From the NCBI GenBank assembly GCA_038065455.1, contig JBBTQX010000002.1, positions 6,779 to 70,778 of the forward strand: a DNA stretch of 64,000 nucleotides, given 5' to 3'. The notes beneath the pieces were generated by a model. It was not told the origin of the DNA, made no database searches, and saw only the letters and a program-made list of their open reading frames with translations. The position numbers and the translations under genes were made by a program. This document shows, piece by piece, positions 17,646-39,370 of this stretch. Source of the stretch: Patescibacteria group bacterium (lineage in GTDB: Bacteria > Patescibacteriota > Minisyncoccia > UBA6257 > GWB1-50-10). Each line of letters opens with the position of its first letter. The first letter of the stretch is position 1.

Positions 17646-19491
17646 TGATTCGGTTATTATAGTACCACAAGAAAACGTCCCTAGCCACCGGCACGACGTT
17701 CAAACTGCCTTCCCGCGCATTTTCCACGAGTATTAAAATGGCGATTTTGGGGTCGTCATAAGGAGCGAAGCCGACGAAAAACGCGTTGGTCTTCGTGTTG
17801 TTCGAAACCTGGGCCGAGCCGGTTTTGGCGGCGACCGGAATCGGCAAGTCATGCAGAAGATAGGAAGTGCCGTAATCCCGAATCACGCCTTCGCGCATCC
17901 CCTTCCTCACTTCCGCGAGCGCCGGACCGATCTCGGCCGAAAGGTCGCGGAGAATCGCCGCCTCGTTCTTCAAAATCGTCTCGCCTTTGATATTTTTTAT
18001 TTCATTCATCACGCGCGGCTTGTTCAGCTTGCCGCCATTTGCAACTGCATTTATGTAATTCAGAAGTTCGATGGGCGTCACCGAAAAATCGCCCTGGCCA
18101 ATCGAGACGTTGAAAGTATCTCCCAAGCGCCATGGCTCGCCTTTTACTCTTTCTTTCCATGCTGGATCCGGCAAGAAACCAGCATCCTCCCCCGTTAAAT
18201 CTATATTCGTCTTTTCGTCGAGACCGAAATTATGCCACCACTTTTTCAATCTTTCTATTCCCAAGCCTTTCTGGTCTCCGAAACCGCCGCCCACGGAATA
18301 GAAATAGACATTCGAGGAACGAGCCAGAGCCGAATATAAATCCACCCAACCCTGCGGCCGCCAATCCAAAAATCGGCTCGGATGCTCCGGGTTGTAGGGA
18401 TTCGGAACATCGAGATAGCCCGGCGAATAAATTTGATGTTTCGGATCCAAGATGCCTTCCGTAAGCGCCGCGGTTCCCACCAGGGGCTTAATGGTCGAAC
18501 CGGGATTGTAAATACCGGAAATCGCCCGATTAAAGAGCGGCTGATTGGCAGAGGTAAGATACTTTCCTATTTTATTCGAATCGAACGAAGGAATATTCAC
18601 AAGAGAAAGAACTTCGCCGTTCCGCGGGTCCATCGCTATCGCAAGGCCGGTATCCCGGCCCAAATCGCGAAGCGCTTGGCTCAAGCGGTCGTAGATATAT
18701 GTCTGGAGATCCCGATCAATAAAAGATGTAAGATTGTTGCCTGGAATCGGCTCCTGAACCGTTCTTTCTTTTTCGGTTCCGCCCACTGCGTTCGTGAGCG
18801 CAACCTTCTCACCGCTCGTTCCCCGAAGATATCCGTCGTAAAAAGCCTCGAGACCATTCCGCCCGACCTGGTCGTCGATATGCAACTCCGAATCTTTCTT
18901 CATATCACTCTTGTTTGCCAAACCAGTATAGCCGACTACGTGGGAAAATTTGAAAAGCGGCGTTTGAACGCGCCGGAACGACGGGTCTATCTCCAAGCCC
19001 GGAAGATTCGCGGCGGAGAGGGATACTAATTCATCGTGATCAAGATCGGGTTTCAAAAGAAATCGGTCGGTCAAATTCCAGTCCCGTTCCTCGAGAGCTC
19101 CAAGCACCTCGTTCTCATATAAACCCAAAGTATTCAAAACATCTCCAATTGCCATTCGCCTTTCCGCAGAAGTTTTCGGAAGAGATTTCGGAACGAGATA
19201 GGCATCGAAAGCGGGCTCGTTTTCGACCATAGCCTTTCCGAAACGGTCGTAGATAATCCCCCGCGGAGCGGGCTCCGTTTTTATATCGCTCATATTCGCC
19301 GTAGCGCGCCGGGAATAGGGTTCATGATTCAAGACCGCCAAGTTCACAAATTGGGCGAAGACGGCAAGAAAAACCAGCGCGACCAAGATGATGAAATTCC
19401 TGAAAACCCGGTCCGTGAGAGGAATTTCCAAAAGGTCTTCCTCGACCGTTCGGTCGGTCAGAATGTCTTCCAGATTAAGCTCGGGATTCAT
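17638..19491 (-). CDS. mrdA: penicillin-binding protein 2 / FtsI-type peptidoglycan transpeptidase
   Basis: SxxK (STIKP), SxN and KTG transpeptidase motifs; follows mreBCD. Confidence 0.85.
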   Translation of the reverse strand: MNPELNLEDILTDRTVEEDLLEIPLTDRVFRNFIILVALVFLAVFAQFVNLAVLNHEPYSRRATANMSDIKTEPAPRGIIYDRFGKAMVENEPAFDAYLVPKSLPKTSAERRMAIGDVLNTLGLYENEVLGALEERDWNLTDRFLLKPDLDHDELVSLSAANLPGLEIDPSFRRVQTPLFKFSHVVGYTGLANKSDMKKDSELHIDDQVGRNGLEAFYDGYLRGTSGEKVALTNAVGGTEKERTVQEPIPGNNLTSFIDRDLQTYIYDRLSQALRDLGRDTGLAIAMDPRNGEVLSLVNIPSFDSNKIGKYLTSANQPLFNRAISGIYNPGSTIKPLVGTAALTEGILDPKHQIYSPGYLDVPNPYNPEHPSRFLDWRPQGWVDLYSALARSSNVYFYSVGGGFGDQKGLGIERLKKWWHNFGLDEKTNIDLTGEDAGFLPDPAWKERVKGEPWRLGDTFNVSIGQGDFSVTPIELLNYINAVANGGKLNKPRVMNEIKNIKGETILKNEAAILRDLSAEIGPALAEVRKGMREGVIRDYGTSYLLHDLPIPVAAKTGSAQVSNNTKTNAFFVGFAPYDDPKIAILILVENAREGSLNVVPVARDVFLWYYNNRING

Positions 19492-19612
19492 CCCGTTAGA
19501 AACAGGATGCGCTTAACAAGCACATCCGTCTAGATTCAAACGACTTTATTATTGCAATGTTCCCCTGTATTGTTTCCATGATATTTCTGAATTTGCCCGT
19601 TTCTAACGGGAT
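19490..19612. mobile_element. G-family MITE copy A (TIR ATCCCGTTAGAAACA / GTTTCTAACGGGAT)
   Basis: 13-15 bp TIR shared with the GIY-YIG element; flanks GGGATTCAT|..|ATTCATG (direct repeat ATTCAT). The left flank supplies the pbp2 ATG; the right TIR supplies the mreD stop. Confidence 0.75.
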
Positions 19613-20097
19613 TCATGAAGATAACCGTATTTTCCAAAAAAATTCAAACAAAGCCAAAAAATCGAACCCAAAACCAGATTATAAACGACTTCGCCAAAAA
19701 CAAAACCGCCGGCAAAAACACTGCCGGCCGTAAATTTGAGCGCTCCGTAAAATATTACTGTTCCCAAGCCGACGGCCAAAAGAAAATCTTGGAAGGACCG
19801 GCCCGTGAAGAAGTTTCGCAGGAAGAAGATTGCAAGAATTATCAAAAGGAGTATGGCCCAAGGCAACATCCAAAAATCGGACAAAATCAAAGTTACCGCA
19901 AAAGCAAAAAACAGCAGAATATATAAAAAACCCGGCTTTATCCGTTTCTTGAAATAAGGTTCGAGAAGCAAGCCAGAGAAAAATATGAGCGCCAGATTGG
20001 GATTGATTCCGCCTAAACTCAAAATTCGGGTCATTCCCAAAAAAATCAAAAGTCCCAGGAAAAGGAGTACAAAAACGAAACGGAACAAATCTCCCAT
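19603..20097 (-). CDS. mreD: rod shape-determining protein MreD (probable)
   Basis: Small polytopic membrane protein between mreC and pbp2. Its last four codons and stop lie inside MITE A. Confidence 0.55.
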   Translation of the reverse strand: MGDLFRFVFVLLFLGLLIFLGMTRILSLGGINPNLALIFFSGLLLEPYFKKRIKPGFLYILLFFAFAVTLILSDFWMLPWAILLLIILAIFFLRNFFTGRSFQDFLLAVGLGTVIFYGALKFTAGSVFAGGFVFGEVVYNLVLGSIFWLCLNFFGKYGYLHESR

Positions 20098-20102
20098 CGG
20101 CC

Positions 20103-20798
20103 TTACGGAAAATCCGTGATTACCAGGACCTTTTTGAGATTTTCGAAGCTAATGGGCGGCTCCAGCTTCACTCGCGACCAAATGCCATTCTCCCCGTCGC
20201 TTCGGCCTATGACTTTTCCGATATTCAGATTAAGGGGAGAATCTTTGGCGAGATTGAAAACCGCGTCGTTCATCTTCACGACCGCGTCTTTGGGCACCAA
20301 ATCCAGATAAGGCGCGGGGCCGCCCACGAGAAGCGCTTTTATTCTATCCGGCCCGAAAGCCGCCGCACTCCGCCAATTCGGGTCGAAAATCGTTGCCGCT
20401 TCGCTCTGGGTTTTTTTCACTTCTTTTATCCTCCCGATTAGGATTCCTTCGGCAGCCAAGACCGGCATGCCGATTTTCAAGCCGTCATCGGCGCCGGCAT
20501 TTATCACGATTGAGCCGTAATTATTGAAGGGGTAATCTGAAAAAACTCCGGCAATTTTGTAGCGGTATTCGCCGCTCAAAGGCGTTTCCTCTTTCGCGCC
20601 CGCGGAAATCTGGGCCAAAAGACCGTTCTGAATTTTCAGATTCTGCCAATTCTCATAGTTGAATTCGGGATCGGCGGCGCCAAAAACGACAACGCGGATA
20701 TTCCGGAAAAAACCGACGAGGGGCTGTCTGAAAAGAAAAATGGCTCCGACGAGCCCGGCAAAAACCATTCCCAATACCAGGATGCGGAACGACTTCAT
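20103..20798 (-). CDS. mreC: rod shape-determining protein MreC
   Basis: N-terminal TM helix, coiled coil, beta domains; operon position. Confidence 0.7.
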   Translation of the reverse strand: MKSFRILVLGMVFAGLVGAIFLFRQPLVGFFRNIRVVVFGAADPEFNYENWQNLKIQNGLLAQISAGAKEETPLSGEYRYKIAGVFSDYPFNNYGSIVINAGADDGLKIGMPVLAAEGILIGRIKEVKKTQSEAATIFDPNWRSAAAFGPDRIKALLVGGPAPYLDLVPKDAVVKMNDAVFNLAKDSPLNLNIGKVIGRSDGENGIWSRVKLEPPISFENLKKVLVITDFP

Positions 20799-21823
20799 AG
20801 ATTGATTATCTTTGAGTTCGAAAAATTATCCAAAAGATTCCGATAAGCGCCGATGTTTTCGCTCATAAGCCCCGTGCCGCGCGAAACGCAGAGAATGGGT
20901 TCGTCCGCCAGATGCACTTCGACGCCGATTTCTTTTTTTATGACTTGGTCTATGCCCCGAAGCAGGCTTCCGCCTCCGCAAAGATAAATGCCGTTCTTGA
21001 AAACGTCTCCAGTCAGTTCCGGCGGCGTCTCGTCAATCAGCTCCTTCAGCGACTCCACCATCATCTTTACCGGCTTCGCCAGCCAATAGCGCACTTGGGT
21101 GTCTTTAATAGCCGCTTCCCGTGGCAGGCCACTCGCCGCGTCCCGTCCGCGAATCATAATTTCCAAATGCTCGGTTTGGGGTATCGCCGCTCCAACCGCT
21201 ATTTTTATTTCTTCGGCCGTCGGTTCGCCGATATGTAATTTCATTTCTTCCTTCACCCCTTTCAATATTTCTTGATTCAAATAATCTCCGGCCACTTTGA
21301 GCCTGCGCGAAATAACGATGCCGTTCATCGAGATGATGGCGATGCCCGTCGTACCCGCCCCAATGTCCACGATAAGATGGGCCGTCGGTTGATTAATATC
21401 CAATTGATTCCCCAGGGCCGCGGCGACCGGCTGTTCCACCAAGTGCACCCGACTTACCCCGACTTCCTTCAAGAGGTCTTCCACCGACTTTCTTTCCACC
21501 TCCGTCAGGTTGGTCGGCACGCTTACGATGGTCTCGGTGAACCAGGACCAGGGCAATTTCTTGTTTTTCAAAATGTGCTGAATCATTTCTTTGGCCATGT
21601 CGAAATCGCCGATGACGCCGTTCACCATCGGCCGCAAAGCCGTCACGTGGGTCGGCGTACGCGAGAGCATCCGCTTGGCTTCGGTGCCCACGGCCACCAC
21701 CCGATTCGTGCGGTTGTTGAATGCCACAATCGACGGTTCGCTCAGAATTATTCCCGTGCCTTTCAAATAGACGCGGGTCGCGTCCGTTCCCAAATCTATG
21801 CCGATGATTTTTTTGAAGATCAT
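20795..21823 (-). CDS. mreB: rod shape-determining protein MreB (actin homolog)
   Basis: IGIDLGT, DIGAGTT and actin-fold phosphate loops. Confidence 0.9.
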   Translation of the reverse strand: MIFKKIIGIDLGTDATRVYLKGTGIILSEPSIVAFNNRTNRVVAVGTEAKRMLSRTPTHVTALRPMVNGVIGDFDMAKEMIQHILKNKKLPWSWFTETIVSVPTNLTEVERKSVEDLLKEVGVSRVHLVEQPVAAALGNQLDINQPTAHLIVDIGAGTTGIAIISMNGIVISRRLKVAGDYLNQEILKGVKEEMKLHIGEPTAEEIKIAVGAAIPQTEHLEIMIRGRDAASGLPREAAIKDTQVRYWLAKPVKMMVESLKELIDETPPELTGDVFKNGIYLCGGGSLLRGIDQVIKKEIGVEVHLADEPILCVSRGTGLMSENIGAYRNLLDNFSNSKIINL

Positions 21824-21826
21824 AAA

Positions 21827-23080
21827 TTAGCTTTTTATTTCTCTGATAAAATCTTGAACTTTTACCAATTTTGTTTCTTTACTGTTTCTTTTCTTTACTT
21901 CAATTTTATCCTGAACCATTGTCTTCTCGCTCACGACGACTCTCCACGGCAAGCCGATAAGGTCGGCATCGAAGAATTTTTCGCCGGCCGAAAGTCCGGC
22001 CCGATCGTCGAAAAGCGGCTCTACACCCTCTTTCACGAGCTGATTATAAACTAGGGCGCCGAACTTTTGAAGCTCGGTGGTACTTTCGCCGATTTGGAGA
22101 AGATGGGCCGGAAACGGGGCGGCTTCTTCGGGCCATAATATCCCCTTTTCGTCGTGATGAACCTCGACAATCGCGCCCATCAACCTATCCACGCCGATGC
22201 CATAACAGCCCATCACGACGGGCAAAACTTCACCCTTCTTATTCTTGAAGGTCAGCCCGACGGGCTCCGAAAACTTGGTGCCCAGTTTGAAAATATTCCC
22301 CACCTCGATGCCTTTCACTTTTTCGAGCACGCCCGCTCCGCATTTTGGACAGCTTTCTTCCGCTTTCAACTCCGCGATTTCCTTGTTACGCGCGAAACCG
22401 CAAAGCCGGCAAAGCAGTATCTCATCCTCGCCCGCCTCGCTTTCCACCATGAATTCATGGGAAATATTCTTCGTAAAATCTCCGCCGGAAGCCTCCGTCA
22501 CGTATGCCTTCAATCCGAGCCGGCTGAAAACCTTCAAGTAGGCTTTTCTGGCCTCATCGTAATATTCTTCGAGCGAAGTTTCGTTCTCGTGGAAGCTATA
22601 AAGGTCTTTCATTATGAATTGCCGCCCGCGGATGAGGCCGGATTTGGCGCGAGGCTCGTCGCGGAATTTCATCTGGATTTGGTAGACGGAAAGAGGCAAA
22701 TCGGCGTAGGAACTAATGATGGGCTTCGCGAGCGGAGTCACGATTTCCTCATGCGTGGGACCGAGGCCGAATTCGTGGCCGGCGCGGTCTTTGAACTGGT
22801 ACATTACCTTGGACATTCCCTCCCACCGGCCCGTCACGTCCCACGCCGATCGCGGATGGAGCGCGGGCATCAGTATCTCGCTCGCCCCGAGCGCGTTCAT
22901 TTCTTCGCGGATGACATTCTGGATTTTTTCGATTACCCGCCAGCCGAGCGGAAGAAATGAATAGGCGCCGGCCATCAATTTTTGGACAAAATTCGCCCGA
23001 ATCAGGAATTGGGCGTTCGCGGACGTTTCATCCTTGGGAAAATCTTTTTGGGTCTTGAAAAATAGATGCGATTGTCTCAC
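21827..23080 (-). CDS. proS: prolyl-tRNA synthetase (short form without editing insertion)
   Basis: QLFIRA/AGxY..LPLG N-terminus, class II motifs, C-terminal anticodon-binding domain. Confidence 0.8.
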   Translation of the reverse strand: MRQSHLFFKTQKDFPKDETSANAQFLIRANFVQKLMAGAYSFLPLGWRVIEKIQNVIREEMNALGASEILMPALHPRSAWDVTGRWEGMSKVMYQFKDRAGHEFGLGPTHEEIVTPLAKPIISSYADLPLSVYQIQMKFRDEPRAKSGLIRGRQFIMKDLYSFHENETSLEEYYDEARKAYLKVFSRLGLKAYVTEASGGDFTKNISHEFMVESEAGEDEILLCRLCGFARNKEIAELKAEESCPKCGAGVLEKVKGIEVGNIFKLGTKFSEPVGLTFKNKKGEVLPVVMGCYGIGVDRLMGAIVEVHHDEKGILWPEEAAPFPAHLLQIGESTTELQKFGALVYNQLVKEGVEPLFDDRAGLSAGEKFFDADLIGLPWRVVVSEKTMVQDKIEVKKRNSKETKLVKVQDFIREIKS

Positions 23081-23106
23081 ACAAAAATCTTACCAAGGAA
23101 AATGAA

Positions 23107-24075: not shown

Positions 24076-24085
24076 GCCAGATAAT

Positions 24086-25659: not shown

Positions 25660-25660
25660 T

Positions 25661-26425: not shown

Positions 26426-26429
26426 ACGG

Positions 26430-27437: not shown

Positions 27438-27447
27438 GATTAAAAAA

Positions 27448-28749: not shown

Positions 28750-28757
28750 GCATCCAT

Positions 28758-28831
28758 TATACCCGGTATTACAATGTTTAGAAAAGTTGCTGGTTCATTT
28801 TTTTTTGATTAGGTTTGTAATACCGGGTATA
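28758..28831. repeat. long hairpin (17-bp perfect stem TATACCCGGTATTACAA / TTGTAATACCGGGTATA, 40-nt loop) in the murA 5' region
   Basis: Perfect inverted repeat 9 nt upstream of the murA start and 15 nt from the GIY-YIG element. Confidence 0.5.
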
Positions 28832-28846
28832 TTATTAAAGGTATGT

Positions 28847-29128
28847 ATCCCGTTAGAGACATTTCTATGTATTACAATTACGTTTTAAGAAGCAAAAAAG
28901 ATGGGAAATGGTATACTGGCTACACGAATGATCTACGGAAGCGCTTTAGCCAGCACAATAGCGATAAATTCCCTCAATGGACCAAAAATCGGGGTCCTTT
29001 TGAAATCATATACTATGAAGCCTGCAAAGATCTGCAAGATGCAAGGTCGAGGGAATATTATCTAAAAACAGGAATGGGTAAACGTTATATCAAAAATAGG
29101 CTAAAGCGCTTCCTGTCTCTAACGGGAT
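28847..29128 (+). mobile_element. G-family coding element: 282-bp unit with perfect 15-bp TIRs enclosing only a GIY-YIG nuclease ORF
   Basis: ATCCCGTTAGAGACA at 28847-28861 and TGTCTCTAACGGGAT at 29114-29128; AT-rich (~37% GC); flanks ATGTAT / ATGAAC; the TIRs encode the ORF's N- and C-termini. Confidence 0.7.
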
Positions 29129-29130
29129 GA
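28867..29130 (+). CDS. GIY-YIG nuclease family protein (YhbQ/YazA UPF0213-like, ~87-95 aa)
   Basis: YYNYVLRS..DGKWYTGYTNDLRKRFSQHN ... RGPFEIIYYE...AR.REYYLK. GIY-YIG motifs with the catalytic Arg and Glu in place. An alternative ATG at 28843 lies inside the left TIR. Confidence 0.7.
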   Translation: MYYNYVLRSKKDGKWYTGYTNDLRKRFSQHNSDKFPQWTKNRGPFEIIYYEACKDLQDARSREYYLKTGMGKRYIKNRLKRFLSLTG

Positions 29131-30371
29131 ACCTCAAAACCCGGCGAACTCTCTTTTACTTCTTCATTCTCATATTCGTCCTTGCGGGCGCTTATCTCCT
29201 CGCAACCGCCCAGGGGCTGGTCCTGGATTTCAAAAATCTGAAGATTACCGGCACTGGCGGGCTCTTTTTGAAGTACGTTCCGCCCGACGCGACTGTGGAA
29301 TTGAACGGCAAAAAAACCGATGTTTCGCCCGGCCTCGTTTCGAGCGGAATTTTCATCTCTAAATTAATTCCCGACGAATACCGGGTAAAGATTTCAAAAC
29401 CGGGCTTCTCTGCCTGGGAAAAGACACTCGCGGTTAAGAACGGCGCGGTGGCTTCGGCGAGCCAAATCAGGCTCTGGCCCGAAGTCTGGGATTTGAATGT
29501 CATTACGACGAGCTCCGTCCGGGATTTCCGGCTCACGGGTGCGGGTCTAGTACTCCAAGGAAAAAACGGAACTCTTCGGCTGGACGGATTTTCTTTGGGA
29601 AACAGGAGTGTCGCTTTGAGCGGGCCGGACTCGTCCCTCATCGTTACGACCGATGAAAAAGAAAATTTTGTAACCAATCTCGAAGATTTGTCACCCGCGC
29701 TCGATATCGTCCGGCTCTTTAATTCGCTGAAACAAAGCCAGTTGAATCTTCCCGGCACGATCATTCCTAAAAATTACTTCCTTCATCCCTTTAACGCCAA
29801 AATTCTCATCACGACCGGAAACGCGCTTTACTCGCTCGATATCAAAAGATTGAGACTTGAAAAACTGACCGATATGGCAGGAATTAAGAAGGCGGAATTA
29901 AGGGGAAACGAAATGTTTCTTTTCGATATGAAAGACAATATAACGACATTCAATCTTTTTCTCCAAACTGCCAGAATTTATGAATCGACCTCCACCGAAG
30001 CCATCGGAATAGGAGCGAGCCTGGCCGGCTTGCCGGCCCCCGACGGGAAAAAGATTTTTTTGCTTTCAAAAAACGACACGCTTTCTTTGAAAGTTTTGGA
30101 AAATTATTATGCCGACGGCGAAGTGAGAAAGGGCGATATGTGGCCCGTTTTTTCCGACCGGGGCAAAATAACGGATTTCAAATGGTTGAATGGCAATTCT
30201 AATTATGCGCTGGTACTTGCCGAAAAAAACTTGTTCATCGTTGAAACCGACCGGCGCACCCCGCAGAATATCCGACTCATATCCCAAGGAGTGGAAAAAT
30301 TCGCGACGGAGGGAAACGATCTCTATATCCTCAAAACCGACGGCACGCTTCTGAGGGCGAGTTTGAAGTAG
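29127..30371 (+). CDS. PEGA-domain envelope protein (hypothetical)
   Basis: N-terminal TM helix; PEGA-like segment (VPPDATVELNGKKTD...YRVKISKPGFSAWEKTLAVKNG). Its ATG is formed by the element's flank. Confidence 0.45.
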   Translation: MNLKTRRTLFYFFILIFVLAGAYLLATAQGLVLDFKNLKITGTGGLFLKYVPPDATVELNGKKTDVSPGLVSSGIFISKLIPDEYRVKISKPGFSAWEKTLAVKNGAVASASQIRLWPEVWDLNVITTSSVRDFRLTGAGLVLQGKNGTLRLDGFSLGNRSVALSGPDSSLIVTTDEKENFVTNLEDLSPALDIVRLFNSLKQSQLNLPGTIIPKNYFLHPFNAKILITTGNALYSLDIKRLRLEKLTDMAGIKKAELRGNEMFLFDMKDNITTFNLFLQTARIYESTSTEAIGIGASLAGLPAPDGKKIFLLSKNDTLSLKVLENYYADGEVRKGDMWPVFSDRGKITDFKWLNGNSNYALVLAEKNLFIVETDRRTPQNIRLISQGVEKFATEGNDLYILKTDGTLLRASLK

Positions 30372-30381
30372 AAGACGAATT

Positions 30382-30750
30382 TTAAAAAATATCAGAGACT
30401 CTAGTCAGTGCAAGCCGATTCATGACTTCATCGTCATAGTTATCCATATGGACACAGATGCAAAGTAAGACGATAACGGCGCCTTTTACTGCGAACCACA
30501 TTCGGGGATACTGATTGGGTCTTAAATTATCATTAGGAACAACGAGTTCTACTTTCCATAAGGTCCAGATATCATTCTGCGTTACCCTGTGTAATTTTGC
30601 CGGGGCTATTATTTGCTTCGGATTCTCCGGATTGAATTGAAATTCGCACAACCTCTTGAATGAATCTAAACCGTCTTTAAGATGACGAAATCGCCGCTCA
30701 AGGGCGGCGATTTCTTTTTCTATGCCGTCATGATACAGAAATTCAATCAT
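30382..30750 (-). CDS. hypothetical 122-aa protein with a C-terminal hydrophobic helix; candidate toxin partner (PanT-like) of the upstream antitoxin
   Basis: 4-nt ATGA overlap with the upstream gene; AT-rich; hydrophobic stretch MWFAVKGAVIVLLCICV; no recognisable family. Confidence 0.35.
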   Translation of the reverse strand: MIEFLYHDGIEKEIAALERRFRHLKDGLDSFKRLCEFQFNPENPKQIIAPAKLHRVTQNDIWTLWKVELVVPNDNLRPNQYPRMWFAVKGAVIVLLCICVHMDNYDDEVMNRLALTRVSDIF

Positions 30751-31238
30751 AGGTCGCTGAAATCCGTACCGCGATAGAACGCGAGTTCATATGAAATATC
30801 CTCTCCCGGCTTCGTCCCAACATATGGGGCCTCAGCATGGGAAAGTTCGCCAAGCTGTTTTCCATTCAATTGGCCGTATTTTATGGCAACGCGATCAAGC
30901 ATTCTTCTTTCTTCGATATCTAATATTAATTCATCCGGTTCCGCCAAAGAACTGTAAACCTCAATTGGATTATATCCATTTCCCAATTCGACGGCTTTGG
31001 CAAGAAGTATTTTTTTCTCGGACATTTCCGATATAATTTTCTCAAAAGAGACTGGTACTGGCCCCATAGGAAGGGCTTTATATGTATCCCCAGTTATAGG
31101 TTTCTGATTCTTTTCGAAGAAATCAAAATCAGCAAAATAAAGGAGTTTTGCTAGTTTTTTCTTCCCTTGGATTTCACCTCCTAATTTCTTACAGAGATAT
31201 AGTATAACTTGCTGATATTTCTTCTTTTGGAGGGTCAT
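30747..31238 (-). CDS. Panacea/DUF4065 (SocA-like) antitoxin-domain protein
   Basis: KKLAKLLYFADFDFF...PITGDTYKALPMGPVPV matches the DUF4065 signature (KLqKLLYfaD...GPV). Confidence 0.55.
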   Translation of the reverse strand: MTLQKKKYQQVILYLCKKLGGEIQGKKKLAKLLYFADFDFFEKNQKPITGDTYKALPMGPVPVSFEKIISEMSEKKILLAKAVELGNGYNPIEVYSSLAEPDELILDIEERRMLDRVAIKYGQLNGKQLGELSHAEAPYVGTKPGEDISYELAFYRGTDFSDL

Positions 31239-31353
31239 TTTACTTAACAGTATTATACCACAATAAAACTCAAAACAACAAGAAAATGGCTATCTGAATA
31301 GTAAAATGAAGACTTAACTTAAATGTTTCAATGCTCCTTCTCAATGCAACAGT

Positions 31354-31382
31354 GGAAAAAAAATCCCCGAAGGGATTTTTTT
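31354..31382. terminator. bidirectional intrinsic terminator after rpsI
   Basis: A7-ATCCC-cgaa-GGGAT-T7. Confidence 0.55.
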
Positions 31383-31833
31383 AACGCTTGCGCCACTGTT
31401 GCGGCCGTCTCGCTTTCCGCAGGCCGTATTTCTTGCGCTCCACCTTCCGGGGGTCGCGTTTCATAAAGCCGAGGGATTTCAATTTGGAACGCCAGGTGGG
31501 ATTCAAAGCGACGAGGGCGCGAGACAAGCCGAGCCGGATGGCTTCTGCCTGGGAACTCAAGCCACCTCCTCCAACCAATGCCGTCGCGTGGTATTCCTTG
31601 AGCGAAAGCTCGCCGAAGGGAGCGAGGACGGTCTTCTGCAATTTCGCGGTCGGAAAATATTCGGAAAAGGGCAAATCATTCACGATAATCTCCGGAGTCT
31701 TGCTCGCCGCTTTGCGGCCGGAAAAAAGCCGGACGCGGGCGACCGCGGTCTTCCGGCGGCCGATAGCCTCGATATATTTATCCTTTTCCTTTTCAATTTT
31801 CTTCGCCGGATGGGCGGTTGTTTTCGAAGGCAT
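31381..31833 (-). CDS. rpsI: 30S ribosomal protein S9 (basic N-terminal extension)
   Basis: GRRKTAVARV...GGG..SQAEAIRLGLSRAL...RRPQ.SKR. Start set at the internal Met (MPSK), which abuts the rplM stop. Confidence 0.85.
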   Translation of the reverse strand: MPSKTTAHPAKKIEKEKDKYIEAIGRRKTAVARVRLFSGRKAASKTPEIIVNDLPFSEYFPTAKLQKTVLAPFGELSLKEYHATALVGGGGLSSQAEAIRLGLSRALVALNPTWRSKLKSLGFMKRDPRKVERKKYGLRKARRPQQWRKR

Positions 31834-31834
31834 T

Positions 31835-32176
31835 TTATTTTTCGATAATGAGATTTTTAAGCCGTTTCGCATTCAGGCGGTTTTTGGGCAACATCAGGCG
31901 CACGGCGTGCCGGAGAACCCAGGCCGGATTCTTTTTGAAAACATCGGCGAATTTCCGCTCCTTGAGATGTCCCAGGGGGCCGGTGTGCTTATAATAAATC
32001 TTCTGATTGGTCTTCTTGCCGGAAACGGCGATTTGCGAAGCGTTCGTGACCAGTACCCGGTCGGTATTCATAAGCCGCGGATTATAATTCGGGCTCTTCT
32101 TACCTTGGAGCAAAAAAGCTATCTCCGAGGAGAGCCGGCCTAATTTTTTGTTTTTCGCGTCGATTTGATGGTCCAT
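31835..32176 (-). CDS. rplM: 50S ribosomal protein L13
   Basis: Conserved L13 core (LGRL.S.IA..L.GK). Confidence 0.85.
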   Translation of the reverse strand: MDHQIDAKNKKLGRLSSEIAFLLQGKKSPNYNPRLMNTDRVLVTNASQIAVSGKKTNQKIYYKHTGPLGHLKERKFADVFKKNPAWVLRHAVRLMLPKNRLNAKRLKNLIIEK

Positions 32177-32177
32177 A

Positions 32178-32531
32178 TTATTTTACGAATTCGATGACGG
32201 CCATTTTGGAGCCGTCGTGCTTCCTCGGAGTAACCGTTTTTACCACCCGGGTGTATCCCCCTTTCCGCTCTTTATAGCGCGGGGCGATTTCGTGGTAAAC
32301 CTTGTAGGCTGCCGCTTTCGGCAATTTCTCCAAAAGCAGTTTCATTCCGGCCAGATTTTGCTGTTTGCCGTAGGTGATATAGCGCTCCACGATGCCCTTC
32401 AATTCCTTGGCGCGCGCCTCGGTCGTCGTAATCTTTTCGTGGCTCACAAGGTTATTGGCCAGAATCCTCAAAAAAGACCTGCGAGGGCCTTTTTTCAAAC
32501 CGAATTTTCTCCCCTTGTGCATGTGCCGCAT
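32178..32531 (-). CDS. rplQ: 50S ribosomal protein L17
   Basis: MRH..KGRK.G conserved L17 N-terminus. Confidence 0.9.
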   Translation of the reverse strand: MRHMHKGRKFGLKKGPRRSFLRILANNLVSHEKITTTEARAKELKGIVERYITYGKQQNLAGMKLLLEKLPKAAAYKVYHEIAPRYKERKGGYTRVVKTVTPRKHDGSKMAVIEFVK

Positions 32532-33278
32532 TTATTTTTCTTTCTTTTTCTTTTCGGGTTTGCCGGAAATCAATTCCGCCGGAACTACTTCGATGGCCAG
32601 AACTTTGTCGAAATGGTCTTTCAAAATATTGCTCGCCTTGTGGAGCGCCTCCGAAGGGCTAATGGAGCCGTCGGTCTCTATTTCCAATTTCAAGCGGTTA
32701 TAATCGGTGCGGTCGCCCACGCGCATATCTTCCGAGTGGAAGGATACCCGGACAACCGGGGAAAAGATGGCATCAAGCACGATCGTGCCGACCGAAAGCC
32801 TCTCCATCCGGCGGGATTCGCTCATCACGTAGCCCAAGCCCTTTTCGACGGTGATTTCCATATCCAAATCGGCGGACTTTTTCGAAAGAGTCGCGAGATG
32901 CAAATCCTTGTTGATTACCCGCACGAGCGTGGAAGATTCGATATCCTCCGCCTTCACTTCCTTCTCGCCTTTCACGTGAAGTTTTAAAGTCTGCGGCTCA
33001 TCGGCGGTAAAATGAAAGCGGACTTTCTTCAGGTTCAACGTGAACTCCACGATATCCTCCACCATGCCGGGCAAAGTCGAAAATTCATGGTCTATATTCT
33101 TAATCTTAATCTGAGTAATAGCCGAACCCGGAAGCGAGGAAAGGAGCGCGCGCCGAAAAGCATTCCCCAAAGTGACGCCATAACCGGTAAAAAGACCTTC
33201 AATGTAAAAAACACCGATATTGTCCTTTTCGGAAATTTTCTTGACCTCGACCGCTTCGCTGATATGTGTATATTTCAT
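32532..33278 (-). CDS. rpoA: DNA-directed RNA polymerase alpha subunit, N-terminal domain only (248 aa; no alpha-CTD)
   Basis: Alpha-NTD motifs (EPLERGYG-like GVTLGNAFRRALLSS); the ORF ends against rplQ, leaving no room for a C-terminal domain. Confidence 0.8.
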   Translation of the reverse strand: MKYTHISEAVEVKKISEKDNIGVFYIEGLFTGYGVTLGNAFRRALLSSLPGSAITQIKIKNIDHEFSTLPGMVEDIVEFTLNLKKVRFHFTADEPQTLKLHVKGEKEVKAEDIESSTLVRVINKDLHLATLSKKSADLDMEITVEKGLGYVMSESRRMERLSVGTIVLDAIFSPVVRVSFHSEDMRVGDRTDYNRLKLEIETDGSISPSEALHKASNILKDHFDKVLAIEVVPAELISGKPEKKKKEK

Positions 33279-33296
33279 TTTTTTGTTTTATAAAAT

Positions 33297-33896
33297 TTAA
33301 CGCGAATAGAATTGGCCGACCACGTTTATATCGAAAGGTAGTTGCACTCCGGTAACGGGCGGTTTTGCCACGCACTCGCCTTTCAATTCCTCCGCTTTGA
33401 GCTTAAGCCACTCAGGCGGGGTGTATTGCTTCAACCGGAGTTGAATATCATCGAAAATCTTCGCCGAGCGGGATTCGGGCCGCACAGCAATAATGTCTTT
33501 AACCCTAACATAATAGGAAGGAATTGTCACTTTTCGGCCATTCACGTGGATATGGCCGTGGGAGACGAGCTGGCGGGCGATTCTCGGAGACTTCGCGAAT
33601 CCCAAAAGAAAAACCACGTGGTCGAGGCGGCTTTCGAGCTTGGTCATAATGCCGTCTTTGTCGGAATTCCGGAACATTCTCATCATCTGATGATTATTCA
33701 GCCCGTAAAGAATTTGGATTTTCTGTTTTTCCTGGAGCTGCTTTCCGAATTCGGAAACGGAGTGGCGCGCCTGGCCGTGCTGGCCCGGGCGGTAAGGATG
33801 GCGTACCATCGCGCACTTCGGCGAATTACAGCGGTCTCCCTTGAGGAAGAGTTTGATGCCCAGCGATCTTTCTTTTTTCTCTTTGATTCTTTTCAT
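33297..33896 (-). CDS. rpsD: 30S ribosomal protein S4
   Basis: Zn-ribbon CNSPKC, S4 domain. Start at the internal Met (MKRIKEKK), whose ATG is the flank of MITE B. Confidence 0.85.
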   Translation of the reverse strand: MKRIKEKKERSLGIKLFLKGDRCNSPKCAMVRHPYRPGQHGQARHSVSEFGKQLQEKQKIQILYGLNNHQMMRMFRNSDKDGIMTKLESRLDHVVFLLGFAKSPRIARQLVSHGHIHVNGRKVTIPSYYVRVKDIIAVRPESRSAKIFDDIQLRLKQYTPPEWLKLKAEELKGECVAKPPVTGVQLPFDINVVGQFYSR

Positions 33897-34018
33897 CCCG
33901 TTTAGAGACAGGATACGCTTAAGAAGCATATCCGTGAAGCATTAGCCGATTCGACTTTATTGGATTCTATTGATTGTTTGATAATCATGTTATTCATAAG
34001 TTTGATGTCTCTAACGGG
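33897..34018. mobile_element. G-family MITE copy B (122 bp)
   Basis: CCCGTTTAGAGACA..TGTCTCTAACGGG; flanks TTCAT|..|ATTCAT; subterminal hairpin GGATACGC-ttaagaa-GCATATCC. Confidence 0.75.
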
Positions 34019-34030
34019 ATTCATATTTTT

Positions 34031-34175
34031 ACCAGGCAGTGAAAATGCGATTGCAAATCGTGATTGAATCGACGATTCTCGCTATTTCCAATGACCTTTT
34101 ATTTATATTCATATGTTTTGATATTATGATGGTTTTCGATTTGAATTCAATCTAATCGCATTTCTACTGCCTGGT
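34031..34175. repeat. E-family inverted-repeat element E3 (145 bp)
   Basis: ACCAGGCAGTGAAAATGCGATTGCAAATCG .. AATCTAATCGCATTTCTACTGCCTGGT; interior homologous to E2 (GATTGCAAAT, TGAATCGA, TTGACCTTT, CATAT); ends on the rpsK stop codon. Confidence 0.6.
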
Positions 34176-34624
34176 TAAACCCTTCTGGTCTTGGCCGGAC
34201 GCGGTCCGTTGTGCGGAATCGGCGTCACATCCTTGATGGACAGTATATTCAAGCCCTTGCCGGCGAAAGAACGGATGGCGGAATCGCGGCCGCTACCCAC
34301 GCCGCGCACGAAAATCTCCACGGTATTCGGGCCGGTCTTTTCCAATTTCTGGGCAATGGCTTCGGCGACTTTGGAAGACGCGAAAGGAGTCGCCTTCTTG
34401 GGTCCGGAAAATCCCAAAGAGCCAGCGGACATCCATGTAATCACGGCACCCTTATCGTCGGTTACGGTAATAATGGTGTTATTATAGGTGGCTTGAATAT
34501 AGATACGGCCGTTTTCCCAGTGCTGTTTGGATGTGGACGAAGATTGCTTAGCCGGCGCCTTTTCGGCCGTCCCCGCTTCCTTCACCGCTTCGTCTTTGGT
34601 TTTTATGACTTTTTTCTTTCCCAT
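34175..34624 (-). CDS. rpsK: 30S ribosomal protein S11 (N-terminal lysine/alanine-rich extension)
   Basis: Conserved S11 core (A.I.ATFNNTI.T.TD..G....W.S.G..GF.G.KK.TPFAA). Confidence 0.85.
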   Translation of the reverse strand: MGKKKVIKTKDEAVKEAGTAEKAPAKQSSSTSKQHWENGRIYIQATYNNTIITVTDDKGAVITWMSAGSLGFSGPKKATPFASSKVAEAIAQKLEKTGPNTVEIFVRGVGSGRDSAIRSFAGKGLNILSIKDVTPIPHNGPRPAKTRRV

Positions 34625-34685
34625 TTGCCGATTATATATGAATTTTCGAGTCTACAGACGATGAAAATTCATCCATAGAATCGAG

Positions 34686-34786
34686 CACCCCGCCATCATC
34701 CCCGACTTGGAGCAGGATATTTTCTTTCATTATGATTTTCGTTATTTTATTGTTTTTCATATTTTTAGTGTAATGATGGCGGGGTA
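34686..34786. repeat. inverted repeat CACCCCGCCATCAT / ATGATGGCGGGGT bounding an AT-rich ~75-nt core in the rpsM-rpsK spacer
   Basis: 13/14-bp inverted repeat; the adjacent hairpin ATGAATTTTC/GAAAATTCAT at 34638-34673 may be a degenerate E-family remnant. Confidence 0.4.
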
Positions 34787-34795
34787 AGTGTTCCC

Positions 34796-35179
34796 TTATT
34801 TCAAATCGACTTTCCGCTTGCCACTACCGGCCGTCTTCCTGACGTTGCCGCGCACCGTCCGGGAATTCGTTTTCGTCCGCTGGCCGCGCACCGGAAGCTT
34901 TCGCAAATGACGCACGCCGCGATAGGCTTTAATATCTTTCAAGCGAGCGATGTTCTGTTTTATCACTTGCCGCAACTCTCCCTCAATCTTGTAGTTCTTC
35001 TCTATCATTGATTGGATGCGGTTCACCTCGTCCGGCGCCAAATCCTTCGCTCGTTTTTGGAGGTCGATTTTCGCGCCGACCAAAACCTTGGCGGCCAAGG
35101 TCGGGCCAATGCCGTAGATGTAGCCCAAGGCCACGTAGATTTTTTTGTTATCGGGTATGTTTACTCCGGCGATTCTCAT
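34796..35179 (-). CDS. rpsM: 30S ribosomal protein S13
   Basis: MRIAGVNIP...K.....L..IYGIG conserved S13 N-terminus. Confidence 0.9.
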   Translation of the reverse strand: MRIAGVNIPDNKKIYVALGYIYGIGPTLAAKVLVGAKIDLQKRAKDLAPDEVNRIQSMIEKNYKIEGELRQVIKQNIARLKDIKAYRGVRHLRKLPVRGQRTKTNSRTVRGNVRKTAGSGKRKVDLK

Positions 35180-35181
35180 AA

Positions 35182-35298
35182 TTATCCTTGTCTTTGTTTA
35201 TGCCTCGGGTTCTTGGCACATATGACGTAAACCCGCCCTTTTCGACGGACGGTCTTGCAAACGCTGCAGATTTTTTTTACCGATGCTCTGACTTTCAT
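35182..35298 (-). CDS. rpmJ: 50S ribosomal protein L36
   Basis: Hand translation [38 protein letters not shown], with the CxxC..C..H zinc ribbon. The ATG is supplied by the MITE C flank. Confidence 0.85.
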
Positions 35299-35418
35299 CC
35301 CGTTAGAGACAGGATACGCTTAAAAAGCGCATCCGTGATATGTCGCTTGGTTTGATTATTCCGACCTGTTGGTTATTCATATTGATACATTATTCAAAAT
35401 TTGTTTGTCTCTAACGGG
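35299..35418. mobile_element. G-family MITE copy C (120 bp)
   Basis: CCCGTTAGAGACA..TGTCTCTAACGGG; flanks TTCAT|..|ATTCAT; hairpin GGATACGC-ttaaaaa-GCGCATCC; interior homologous to copy B (GTTATTCATA). Confidence 0.75.
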
Positions 35419-35430
35419 ATTCATAAAACT

Positions 35431-35664
35431 TTACAATCTTCGCACGATTCGTCCCCGTTTGTCCAGGATGTTCGCCATCTCCACCATAACCCTGTCTCCG
35501 GGGATAACCCGGATGCGGTTGATTTTAAGCTTGCCGGCGGGATGCGCTAAAATGTCTTTTTCTTCCCCGTTTTCAAGTTTGACCTTCACGCGGAAAAGCA
35601 AACCCGGCAGTGCCTCCACCGCTATTCCCTCAATCCTGACTAAAGGCGTATTTTCCATTAACAA
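35431..35664 (-). CDS. infA: translation initiation factor IF-1
   Basis: S1-like OB fold (G.V.E.LPN..F.V.LENG......GK.R...IRI..GD.V). Confidence 0.85.
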   Translation of the reverse strand: MLMENTPLVRIEGIAVEALPGLLFRVKVKLENGEEKDILAHPAGKLKINRIRVIPGDRVMVEMANILDKRGRIVRRL

Positions 35665-35673
35665 ACAGAGTGA

Positions 35674-35702
35674 ATTTTAGACAAATACAGATTTTTTGTC
35701 AA
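35674..35702 (-). promoter_or_regulatory. near-consensus sigma70 promoter for the infA r-protein operon
   Basis: On the minus strand: TTGACA, 17-nt spacer, TAAAAT, about 8 nt upstream of the infA ATG region. Confidence 0.5.
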
Positions 35703-39364: not shown

Positions 39365-39370
39365 CTTATT

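Follow-up and report, generated by a model that had tools for sequence, protein, structure and literature searches.

The 64-kb stretch of DNA analysed here (the window) carries three ORF-less repeats of about 120 bp at the start codons of pbp2, rpsD and rpmJ, and a related copy that encodes a GIY-YIG nuclease. This raises the question of what these repeats are, how they came to lie at gene starts inside operons, and whether they serve the host or are simply tolerated.

Four Copies of One Element in the Window

Copy A (19491..19611, minus strand; 121 bp) lies at the pbp2 start, copy B (33896..34019, minus; 124 bp) at the rpsD start, copy C (35298..35419, minus; 122 bp) between infA and rpmJ, and copy D (28848..29127, plus; 280 bp) at the start of a PEGA-domain gene; A, B and C are non-autonomous and D is autonomous. 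An earlier note on this DNA had placed all four correctly, although with a mixed convention (A was given with its outer AT pair, B and C without). The copies share 14-bp terminal inverted repeats (YCCCGTTAGAGACA). The arm TGTCTCTAACGGG, with up to two mismatches, occurs eight times in the window as four inverted pairs, compared with a mean of 0.68 in shuffled windows (0 of 100 reached eight), and a profile search of the 64 kb found no fifth copy. The arms of copy A are at 19598-19611 and 19491-19504 (minus), the gene-proximal one being abutted by a 10-bp internal hairpin (19505-19527, minus). In copy B the gene-proximal arm (33897-33910) contains a 1-nt insertion and reads TGTCTCTAAACGGG in gene orientation and CCCGTTTAGAGACA on the plus strand.

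Each copy is co-oriented with the gene that begins at its own right end, namely those for PBP2 (17638-19491, minus), S4 (33297-33896, minus), L36 (35182-35298, minus; profile positions 1-38 of 38 matched) and the PEGA-domain protein (29127-30371, plus), whose identities were checked by Pfam and by the called genes of related contigs. In host-gene orientation, the flanks are ATGAAT / ATGAAT for A, ATGAAT / ATGAAA for both B and C, and ATGTAT / ATGAAC for D. Around copy A the duplicated TGAA occupies 19612..19615 upstream and 19487..19490 downstream (minus); the upstream one together with 19616 is the displaced original pbp2 ATG, and the regenerated start codon is 19489-19491, its A (19491) being the terminal base of the element. 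The TGAA pairs of copies B (34020-34023 and 33892-33895, minus) and C (35420-35423 and 35294-35297, minus) are arranged likewise, with the L36 start codon at 35296-35298 (minus), and copy D has an imperfect duplication with one mismatch (TGTA 28844-28847 on the left, TGAA 29128-29131 on the right, plus).

Uninterrupted sites at three of the four genes in related genomes demonstrate that the copies are insertions. At pbp2, the element is missing from the relative L271 (PBP2 92% identical), where the site reads TATCTCCATGAATCCCGATCTT, and likewise from the outgroup L272 (75% identical); at rpsD and rpmJ, the relative L121 (86–95% nucleotide identity in this comparison) reads AAAAAACATGAAAAGAATC and AAGTTTTATGAAAGTCAGAGC respectively. 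The comparison with relatives lacking the copies that the earlier note had called for gave empty sites, and these, together with the census described below, bear out its view that the copies sit within operons, each directly upstream of a gene start. The junctions of the window copies recur in independent assemblies; in other assemblies of the same organism the contigs end inside copy D.

Genes for MreB, MreC and an MreD-like protein lie upstream of copy A, and infA lies upstream of copy C. The mreD-like ORF (19603-20097) now terminates at a TAG within the arm of copy A; at the empty pbp2 site of L271 it overlaps pbp2 by 17 nt. Copy B contains an upstream ORF of 40 codons (33902-34024) that begins at the displaced ATG and ends 5 nt before the S4 start.

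The Autonomous Form and Its Nuclease

The autonomous form measures 273–280 bp and consists of perfect 14-bp terminal inverted repeats (YCCCGTTAGAGACA...TGTCTCTAACGGGR) around one ORF. In copy D this ORF (28867..29130, plus) encodes 87 aa and would encode 95 aa with the displaced, in-frame host ATG at 28843 as its start; across the family the nuclease is a single-domain protein of 86–87 aa whose ORF starts 14–21 nt within the element. The right arm itself forms the final five codons of the ORF (L-S-L-T-G). The element has no stop codon of its own, and in 13 of 16 autonomous copies a TGA or TAA is supplied by the flank; in copy D this is the TGA at 29128-29130, which belongs to the duplicated target and shares bases with the host ATG (29127-29129).

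The copy D protein matches Pfam PF01541 (E = 5.5e-16; score 59.1 bits, cut-off 22.6). Homologous protein clusters number at least 1992, with an almost invariant C-terminus (LKRFLSLTG) and the invariant residues Y, Y, G, R, H, N, E and N. The nuclease is UPF0213/SLX1-like: the nearest proteins by sequence are UPF0213 members (YazA, 44% identity, and BH0048), and the structural neighbours of its AlphaFold2 model (pLDDT 85.7) are UPF0213 BH0048 and Slx1 (TM ~0.6), not I-TevI.

Miniature Copies

Copies A, B and C derive from the coding form by deletion between the halves of an internal inverted repeat, which in copy D are GGAAGCGCTTTAGCC (28937..28951) and GGCTAAAGCGCTTCC (29099-29113, plus); loss of the intervening DNA produces the internal hairpin of the miniatures. 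Internal repeats of 11–12 nt, which vary in sequence, are present in 13 of 16 autonomous copies, and a hairpin of at least 7 bp adjoins the right arm in 45 of 74 miniatures, compared with 2.4% of shuffles. A shared GTTATTCATA (ATGAATAAC; ATGTATTAC in D) is a relic of the start of the nuclease ORF, and an upstream ORF reaches the right arm in just 9 of 44 miniatures. Predicted RNA folds are strong in copies A (-42.8 kcal/mol, z = -4.6), B (z = -5.9) and C (z = -6.4).

The miniatures retain the terminal repeats and the internal hairpin and spread as such, since the interiors of A, B and C are far closer to one another (76–85% identity in aligned columns, z = 6.4–8.3 against shuffles) than to D (z = 2.1–3.4), and since the CCGCGGTCGC subfamily is found again at unrelated genes in many genomes. 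The empty sites and the census support the earlier note's reading of the miniatures as GIY-YIG element derivatives that lack the ORF, and they also support an origin by internal deletion.

Target Site and Preference for Gene Starts

A census of about 200 further elements was carried out in two independent collections (110 elements from genome contigs and 88 from metagenome contigs) with a probe that demanded a perfect right arm, which biases the sample to young copies. Exact 15-mer matches in genome contigs had a partner arm within 400 bp in 103 of 128 cases, compared with 0 of 24 in viral contigs, the negative control. The duplicated target is 4 bp, with consensus TGAA and sometimes just 3 bp. 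It is perfect over 4 nt in 64 of 110 elements, the remaining ~40% showing decay or a 3-bp shifted register, and its sequence varies (TGAA, TGGA, TTGA, CAAA and others).

The ATGAA-type duplication proposed earlier was thus found, although not at the proposed 5–6 bp. Positions -1 and +1 are Watson–Crick paired in 107 of 110 elements (T:A 80, C:G 27) with mutual information of 0.76 bits (0.49 for -3/+4 and 0.33 for -4/+3), and position -6 is unlike +1 in 13 of the 64 perfect duplications, as in ATGAAC-element-GTGAAA. Since the +1 base pairs with the opposite terminus and can differ from the left flank, it belongs to the element and the duplication is 4 bp. Where +2 is other than T it copies position -5 (L113, L026, L018, L043), and a tandem array in L068 reads A-TTCA-C, then G-TTCA-C. 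The terminal pair, T..A or C..G, gives the first base of the rebuilt ATG or GTG.

Insertion is found overwhelmingly at start codons and in the orientation of the gene. Among 53 elements with clean duplications, the reconstructed site contained a start codon in 46, and in 41 an ORF of 60 codons or more began there; an upstream in-frame stop lay within 30 codons (median 9) in 40 of these 41, compared with 31% of control ATGRA sites. About 77% of clean elements lie at genuine gene starts, compared with the ~10% expected from site availability by crude ORF calling. The metagenome contigs, with 94 new elements, replicated this pattern: 64 of 88 had ATG at +1, and 37 of 47 clean ones lay at gene starts. 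The earlier note had explained the position by the ATG that ATGAA contains. This accounts for the survival of the gene but not for the bias, since at the same loci intergenic DNA has about nine times as many TGRA sites (1547) as the gene starts have (178).

Co-orientation with the gene is about 20:1, opposite-orientation flanks making up ~5% or less. In the window, copy D (plus) lies between A (minus) and B and C (minus) while the GC skew keeps one sign throughout, which indicates that orientation follows the gene and not the replication fork. Shine–Dalgarno-like motifs occur at 13% of element-bearing starts against a background of 17%, with the host gene behind a 15-bp stem. Relatives of 57–64 nt were also seen in frame within long Planctomycetota ORFs.

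Proposed Mechanism and Alternative Explanations

These features are best explained, with a probability of about 0.7, by a selfish inverted-repeat transposon and its miniature derivatives, moved by the element's own nuclease and tolerated in the window operons. On insertion, the last element base (A or G) and the duplicated TG form a new ATG or GTG directly before an intact ORF, and the original start codon remains at the left end of the element behind the native upstream region of the gene. The element has no recognisable expression signals of its own, and would probably depend on host transcription and on ribosomes reaching the displaced start codon; each of the three frames of the right arm enters the host frame or meets a stop no more than 8 nt from the host ATG. 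In autonomous copies, the overlap of nuclease stop and host start (ATGA) may permit termination–reinitiation. By analogy with Ssn and SLX1, the nuclease may recognise the folded repeat and hairpin, probably as single-stranded DNA, with a predicted cut at the element boundary. The 4-bp duplication fits staggered double-strand cuts and is harder to reconcile with an Ssn-like activity confined to single strands. To our knowledge, GIY-YIG proteins are not established as a transposase class in prokaryotes.

The most serious alternative, although an unlikely one, is a domesticated system beneficial to the host, with roles in limiting recombination or transformation, in RNA processing or in translational control. 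Its model is the Neisseria Ssn/NTS pair, which modulates natural transformation and whose NTS repeats cluster near particular genes (PMC11893778). The strong, significant folds, the conservation of hairpin structure over variable sequence and the striking positions at essential-gene starts would suit it; however, structural conservation is equally expected if needed for mobility, relatives at 86–95% nucleotide identity have no copies at the same genes with junctions otherwise intact, and the host genes are mutually unrelated. Moreover, the nuclease is present in multiple copies and keeps an identity of at least 70% between phyla, which points to horizontal spread (see also PMC12455944), and neither an Rfam family nor a ribozyme-like match was found for the elements. 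The elements could also be read as a free-standing homing endonuclease gene that spreads by allelic break repair without transposition, A, B and C being remnants decayed in place. This is improbable: the enzyme is a GIY-YIG nuclease whose gene is squeezed between host genes, with a stop that overlaps the next start, like free-standing phage homing genes, and both ends of its ORF can be aligned with the miniatures, but the sites share just 4–5 nt across dozens of unrelated genes, the flanks are duplicated with varying sequence, and the protein has no DNA-binding domain and a fold nearer SLX1/UPF0213 than I-TevI. Decay in place also disagrees with the similarity of A, B and C, which are much nearer each other than D, and with distinct miniature subfamilies recurring between genomes.

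DDE transposases move most bacterial miniature inverted-repeat elements in trans, and we know of no transposition activity of GIY-YIG proteins, so an unrelated transposase encoded elsewhere might act on the repeats with the GIY-YIG ORF as a passenger. We consider this highly improbable given that the right repeat lies within the ORF and encodes LSLTG in 24 of 24 sampled homologues, that the 273–280-bp unit keeps a constant layout with no second gene, and that the same repeats accompany the same protein in four phyla. Chance similarity or assembly artefact is already refuted: a lone 15-mer does occur randomly in huge databases, as in the 24 viral and some genome matches without a partner, but four paired copies in 64 kb (0.68 single arms expected), hundreds of paired copies elsewhere and identical junctions in independent assemblies contradict it.

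Comparison With Known Systems

Among published systems, the Ssn/NTS pair (Chenal 2025, Nat Commun, PMC11893778) comes closest. Ssn is a 94-aa single-domain GIY-YIG nuclease that binds hairpin repeats and makes directional cuts next to them in single-stranded DNA; its gene is flanked by these repeats, a layout that is, in the authors' words, "identical to" an insertion sequence. Both systems have a ~90-aa single-domain GIY-YIG protein whose gene is bracketed by the repeat presumed to be its substrate, gene-less repeats that far exceed the gene, and a repeat direction set by a conserved flank beside the hairpin. However, the arms here pair around the gene, whereas each NTS repeat is a separate hairpin, and the published SRM motif matched 0 of 204 elements. 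PMC11893778 reports neither target duplications nor empty sites, and it describes no internally deleted derivatives, no insertion at start codons and no hosts among the CPR.

Correia elements of Neisseria are similar in size (100–150 bp), terminal inverted repeats, short target duplications, gene-adjacent insertion, co-transcription and long RNA hairpins, but they duplicate TA and have no known autonomous partner; the present elements have one, with a GIY-YIG nuclease rather than a DDE transposase, and insert orientation-specifically at the start codon. REP/REPIN-RAYT (Y1/HUH) and IS200/IS605 systems also place a nuclease gene between the hairpin repeats it acts on, with many short non-autonomous copies and structure-dependent recognition of single-stranded DNA. 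They differ by the HUH fold and the absence of target duplication; IS200/IS605 elements (~0.7 kb, the smallest insertion sequences until now) track the replication fork and not the gene, and RAYTs occur as single copies and are inherited vertically. Rickettsia palindromic elements are likewise short mobile repeats tolerated within expressed genes, although of unrelated sequence, with no associated nuclease gene known, and inside ORFs rather than at start codons as in the window. GIY-YIG homing endonucleases (I-TevI, Seg) and the endonuclease domain of Penelope-like elements show the same domain used by selfish DNA, and free-standing homing genes are nested between host genes too; unlike the present family, they have long DNA-binding domains and long specific targets, with no inverted repeats or miniatures, and Penelope-like elements are eukaryotic retroelements.

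Concluding Remarks

Two collections thus provided the census that the earlier note had suggested, with TGAA duplication and about 77% of clean elements at gene starts. As far as sequence tells, the question of a host function is answered negatively, since close relatives lack the copies, and no sequence evidence for host benefit was found. A consensus terminator scan flagged solely the internal hairpin of copy A, and shuffled sequences give matches of this kind at least as often; from their position in the operons, the copies are probably co-transcribed with the operon genes. The best reading is that the copies in the mreBCD-pbp2 and infA-rpmJ-rpsM-rpsK-rpsD operons are tolerated passengers and not host regulatory parts, and the family to which they belong is very widespread in ultra-small (CPR) bacteria.

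Four Copies of One Inverted-Repeat Element

The arm TGTCTCTAACGGG, searched for with up to 2 mismatches, has eight matches in the window that form four inverted pairs, against a mean of 0.68 in shuffled windows (0 of 100 shuffles reached 8), and a search with a profile built from 73 related elements found no fifth copy in the window. All four copies share one layout in the direction of the gene: ATG-A/T-A-T, the element itself (CCCGTTAGAGACA ... TGTCTCTAACGGG), and then ATGAA with the gene. Copy A (19491–19611, minus strand) stands before the gene for PBP2, copy B (33896–34019, minus strand) before that for ribosomal protein S4, copy C (35298–35419, minus strand) before that for L36 and the coding copy D (28848–29127, plus strand) before a PEGA-domain gene. 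The identities of these host genes are backed by Pfam and by the genes called in related contigs; upstream, A is preceded by MreB, MreC and a MreD-like gene, and C by infA. The window organism is one of the groundwater Patescibacteria (CPR), a name under which the identical nuclease and PBP2 proteins are recorded, and contigs that match it come from samples of the Hainich aquifer.

A, B and C measure 121–124 bp, with arms of 13–14 nt that are perfect or carry compensated changes; TGAA is duplicated at each of them and no ORF of the three has a protein-family match. They are small and non-coding, have terminal inverted repeats, a target duplication and empty sites, and are multiple copies derived from an autonomous element, with hundreds more in other genomes, which are the traits of a MITE. 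We class the four copies as an inverted-repeat transposon family with miniature derivatives, whose logic is akin to that of the Ssn nuclease and hairpin systems. The arms in the window, the empty sites and the census described below indicate that the observation made in the earlier note was real and its interpretation essentially right.

Empty Sites in Related Genomes

Comparison with relatives that lack individual copies, as the earlier note had proposed, revealed empty sites for B and C in one contig and for A in another. The former (L121, a separate assembly with 86–95% nucleotide identity to the window) has uninterrupted infA-rpmJ (AAGTTTTATGAAAGTCAGAGC) and rpsK-rpsD (AAAAAACATGAAAAGAATC) junctions, which in the window are split into ATGAA-T, the core and ATGAA. 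The latter (L271, with a PBP2 92% identical) has an uninterrupted pbp2 junction (TATCTCCATGAATCCCGAT) and a more distant contig (L272, 75% identical) is also without copy A; since both lack the element, copy A is a gain in the lineage of the window. Before the insertion, the mreD-like gene and pbp2 shared a 17-nt overlap; the former now ends at a TAG within the arm of copy A. In three independent assemblies of the same organism (L124, L125 and L126) the contigs terminate inside D, indicating that the coding element fragments short-read assemblies.

Some host genes start with ATGAATCCC(G), encoding Met-Asn-Pro, and match the left junction of the element (window 19483–19491, L271 801–812, L157 and L179); at the pbp2 site this sequence was present before the insertion, the outgroup start being ATGAAAGAT. 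L179 also holds a solitary left arm fused to an ORF, and CCC follows a gene-start ATGAAT in 5 of 128 cases. The Met-Asn-Pro starts and the lone left arm may be excision footprints or arm remnants.

Other insertions lie close to copies B and C. A second, unrelated hairpin element (CCAGGCAGTAGAAATGCGATT.../...AATCGCATTTTCACTGCCTGG) is located between rpsK and copy B (34022–34184) and is missing from the L121 junction, with a 67-nt relative at 8324–8390. A third insertion type of about 171 nt (34625–34795), with the inverted repeat CCCCGCCATCATT/GATGATGGCGGGG and a 42-codon ORF without a family match, is found between rpsM and rpsK, where the intergenic gap of L121 is just 4 nt. Together with B and C, these make four small insertions in one ribosomal-protein operon relative to L121. 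Upstream of infA, a 3.7-kb segment of low GC (35685–39371, GC 0.39) that is missing from L121 encodes a 950-aa fused Eco57I/MmeI-type restriction-modification enzyme and a NYN-domain protein, and a strong promoter-like site (TTGACA-17-TAAAAT) is present at 35702–35674. Additionally, a perfect 24-nt palindrome followed by a T-run (GGTGGTGTCTTTAAAGACACCACC) is identical at 47146–47169 and 62840–62863, and at 37484 and 44875 it has weaker relatives; the palindromes are probably shared terminator hairpins.

Census, Target Duplication and Element Termini

An exact probe (CCTGTCTCTAACGGG), with the flanks left unconstrained, matched at least 120 loci in genome contigs. A partner arm was present for 103 of the 128 probe matches listed for genome contigs and for 0 of 24 matches in viral contigs, which serve as a negative control for chance 15-mers and argue against spread by phage. 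The hosts comprise many CPR lineages (Saccharibacteria and numerous Parcubacteria groups), Planctomycetota, Omnitrophota and Elusimicrobiota, and the elements fall into size classes of about 60, 112–124, about 186–192 and 273–289 bp.

Positions are numbered in gene orientation, negative in the left flank and positive in the right one, with +1 as the first base of the regenerated start codon. The right flank of 110 oriented elements begins with ATG in 72, GTT in 11 and GTG in 8, and its +1 to +5 consensus is A/G-T-G-A-A. Positions -5 to -2 equal +2 to +5, a perfect 4-nt duplication, in 64 of the 110 genome elements and 55 of the 88 metagenome elements, so the census of flanks suggested in the earlier note bears out a duplication of the ATGAA type. 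Positions -1 and +1 form a Watson-Crick pair in 107 of 110 elements (T:A 80, C:G 27) and share the highest mutual information (0.76 bits, complementary), followed by the identical pairs -3/+4 (0.49 bits) and -4/+3 (0.33 bits).

The earlier note had proposed a duplication of 5–6 bp with a TTCAT/ATGAA preference; the duplication and the preference hold, and the length is corrected to 4 bp. A duplication of 5 bp is ruled out because -6 is unlike +1, yet +1 pairs with -1, in 13 of 64 clean cases and again in 13 of 55, as in ATGAAC-element-GTGAAA (in three unrelated genes) and GTGAAT-element-ATGAAT, which favors 4 bp and a terminal pair. GIY-YIG enzymes typically cut to leave 2-nt overhangs; a duplication of 2 bp with AY..RT termini is ruled out by the rare elements with a base other than T at +2 (L113, L026, L018 and L043), where this base equals position -5, e.g., GCTCAC-element-GCTCAA. 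In one tandem array (L068) the junctions read A-TTCA-C and then G-TTCA-C. We conclude that the element termini are Y...R, hence inverted repeats of 14 bp, that the duplication is 4 bp (3 bp, in a shifted register, in ~10% of elements) and that the start codon at the right junction takes its first base from the element. Since the element supplies this base, ATG and GTG are interchangeable. Tandem arrays of two or three elements, with one 4-nt duplication common to neighbors, occur at eight loci (L019, L029, L031, L047, L068, L082, L083 and L088); the shared duplication is expected if the target is rebuilt on either side with every insertion.

Association with Start Codons and Orientation

Empty sites were rebuilt for 53 elements, each of at least 100 bp and with a clean duplication. 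A start codon is found at 46 of these sites, 41 of which begin an ORF of 60 codons or more, and in 40 of the 41 an in-frame stop lies upstream within 30 codons (median 9), compared with just 31% among ATGRA sites at the head of long ORFs that were used as controls. Insertion just 5' of gene starts, as claimed from the window, is therefore seen at 41 of 53 rebuilt sites, and it was replicated in 94 new metagenome elements, with ATG at +1 in 64 of 88 and gene starts at 37 of 47 clean sites. With a crude gene call of the same loci, 1547 TGRA sites fall in intergenic DNA and 178 at gene starts, so tolerance alone predicts ~10% of surviving copies at starts and not 77%; the start-codon bias exceeds what tolerance alone explains.

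About 95% of elements point the same way as their gene. For the window, a fork-determined orientation like that of IS200/IS605 is rejected because GC skew does not change sign across the stretch where D (plus strand) stands between A and B/C (minus strand); both strands are thus occupied on one replichore, each copy according to its own gene, and orientation follows the gene and not the fork.

The Autonomous Element and Its Nuclease

The ORF of copy D encodes 87 aa with a GIY-YIG domain (Pfam PF01541, E = 5.5e-16, 59.1 bits vs. a cut-off of 22.6), and its homologues form at least 1992 protein clusters, typically of 86–87 aa and with >70% identity across phyla. The protein consists of the GIY-YIG domain alone, a build like that of the Ssn family (single-domain, about 90–100 aa). 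Residues Y11, Y13, Y24, G26, R34, H38, N39, E59, E71 and N85 do not vary among 24 homologues; judged from its sequence, the protein is a member of the superfamily of GIY-YIG nucleases in which the predicted catalytic residues (Tyr, Tyr, Arg, Glu, Asn) are conserved, and the predicted structure (pLDDT 85.7) shows the GIY-YIG fold. By sequence and predicted fold its nearest relatives are UPF0213 (BH0048, YazA) and the Slx1 nuclease domain, I-TevI not being close; the closest sequences are UPF0213 BH0048 (E = 2e-11) and YazA (44% identity). By similarity, the nuclease would be placed nearer to UPF0213 (cd10456), assignments to the Ssn family (cd10448) and to the SLX1-like group being the alternatives.

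In 16 autonomous copies, the ORF starts 14–32 nt inside the element or, as in D, in frame with the displaced host ATG. The stop codon is provided by the flank (+2 to +4, TGA or TAA) in 13 of the 16, overlapping the regenerated start, and the nearly invariant C-terminus LKRFLSLTG is coded by the right repeat. An internal inverted repeat of 11–12 nt, different in sequence from copy to copy, joins the segments coding for LRKRF and LKRF in 13 of the 16; in D its halves are 15 nt long (28937–28951 and 29099–29113, plus strand). Gene callers sometimes add MNPVRD, the translated left flank and arm, to the N-terminus of the nuclease, and C-terminally extended nucleases are called where the duplicated target has no TGA or TAA.

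Miniature Copies

A, B and C align to both ends of D, which has the same arms, confirming the description of them as ORF-less derivatives of the GIY-YIG element. The part that is missing lies between the internal repeat halves, and the miniatures are the remainder after loss of the DNA between D-type halves. Of 74 miniature copies, 45 have a hairpin of at least 7 bp directly beside the right arm (vs. 2.4% of shuffles), with 44 different stem sequences. A second miniature subfamily, with the extended terminal stem CCGCGGTCGC.../...GACCGCGACC, is found at unrelated genes in many genomes; this recurrence, together with the fact that A, B and C are far nearer to each other than to D, indicates that miniatures spread as miniatures.

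Shorter members of 57–64 nt (L002, L007, L054, L057, L061, L082, L106 and L114; Planctomycetota and Omnitrophota) end in C...G and are flanked by duplications, TTGA for example. They lie mostly within long ORFs, co-oriented and with one frame left open, a situation which can be likened to that of Rickettsia palindromic elements; a 63-nt core with 2 terminal bases and a 4-nt duplication amounts to 69 nt, i.e., 23 codons.

Effects on Host-Gene RNA and Translation

The RNA of each copy is predicted to fold (-39.7 to -44.3 kcal/mol, z = -4.6 to -6.4) with a 15-bp stem that takes in the A and U of the regenerated AUG. Of the three frames of the right arm, one ends at a TAA 8 nt before the host ATG, another at a TGA overlapping it, and the third enters the host frame; TGA and TAG occur in those that enter the left arm from the duplicated target. 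Translational coupling through an upstream ORF would fit copy B, where a 40-codon uORF begins at the displaced ATG and ends 5 nt short of the S4 start, but it is rejected as a general explanation because only 9 of 44 miniature-copy uORFs, B included, reach the right arm. Restoration by the stem of Shine-Dalgarno spacing to the start is not supported either, such motifs being rare, at 13% of starts that bear an element and 17% of the background. Most likely, the regenerated start would be freed by ribosomes that come from the upstream gene or the displaced ATG and melt the left arm.

An identity with a known RNA family or ribozyme is rejected: at the gathering threshold, Rfam 15 recovers just a tRNA (1015–1101), with nothing meaningful at E up to 5 in 33700–35600. 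An intrinsic terminator or promoter within the copies is also rejected, as consensus matches are weak and no more frequent than in shuffles; the terminator scan of the copies flags the internal hairpin of A alone.

Relation to Known Systems

A homing endonuclease gene recognizes a long (14–40 bp) specific target common to all its sites and produces no target duplication. The present sites share just N-TGAA in unrelated genes and show duplications, which argues against this origin despite the GIY-YIG domain. Transposons of the IS200/IS605 type use a HUH (Y1) transposase, make no target duplication and have a fork-tied orientation; here the only protein is a GIY-YIG nuclease, 4 bp are duplicated and orientation follows the gene. 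Correia-type miniature elements, REP/RAYT, IS200/IS605, Rickettsia palindromic elements and GIY-YIG homing endonucleases each have only single features in common with the transposon family.

A literature search on the repeat sequence, on GIY-YIG proteins with miniature elements, transposases or CPR, and on UPF0213/YhbQ returned no description of the element, and only one study came close. In the Ssn/NTS system the nuclease, a single-domain GIY-YIG protein of 94 aa, binds a hairpin repeat that has a direction and cuts solely single-stranded DNA a few nt upstream of the repeat; the gene is typically flanked by repeats, and the authors described this arrangement as "identical to" an insertion sequence and suggested domestication (PMC11893778). 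Target duplications, empty sites, association with start codons and CPR hosts are found here and are not reported in that study (PMC11893778). The published SRM motif (HGTCWYN(0-2)YYVSBRHN(0-5)WNVSBRGN(0-2)RNCYNB) is rejected as the repeat of the element, with matches in 0 of 204 elements and at 0 window sites by a regular expression that does match the canonical NTS.

Concluding Remarks

This analysis sharpens the interpretation by a duplication of 4 bp, by the rebuilding of the start codon from a terminal base and by a start bias larger than tolerance alone would give. The GIY-YIG protein is a candidate, unproven, for the mobilizing enzyme. A more far-reaching and tentative reading, to which we give a probability of roughly 0.45, is that no autonomous DNA transposon smaller than this one (~275 bp, 86 aa) has yet been seen, that the single-domain GIY-YIG nuclease is a new kind of prokaryotic transposase, that the element evolved to reside precisely at start codons, and that Ssn systems are, or descend from, such transposons. 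Under this joint reading, the element would borrow transcription and the translation start from its host, take its own stop codon from the duplicated target and give the start codon back from its last base, sometimes exchanging ATG and GTG.

If the nuclease moves the element, prokaryotic DNA transposition would have a further catalyst in GIY-YIG, next to the DDE, HUH, serine, tyrosine and Cas1 enzymes, and the lower size limit of an autonomous mobile element would fall to ~275 bp. A testable origin is also offered for the Ssn nuclease and hairpin-repeat systems, which are under development as ssDNA-cutting tools. For annotation, the element accounts for errors such as MNPVRD-extended nucleases, fused or mis-started host genes and contigs broken at the coding copy. 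The ~200 elements additionally serve as natural experiments in which a start codon directly carries a 15-bp stem, in hosts that seem to rely little on Shine-Dalgarno motifs. Insertion at start codons and their rebuilding allow a parasite to persist in genomes that are ~90% coding, even before ribosomal-protein and cell-wall genes.
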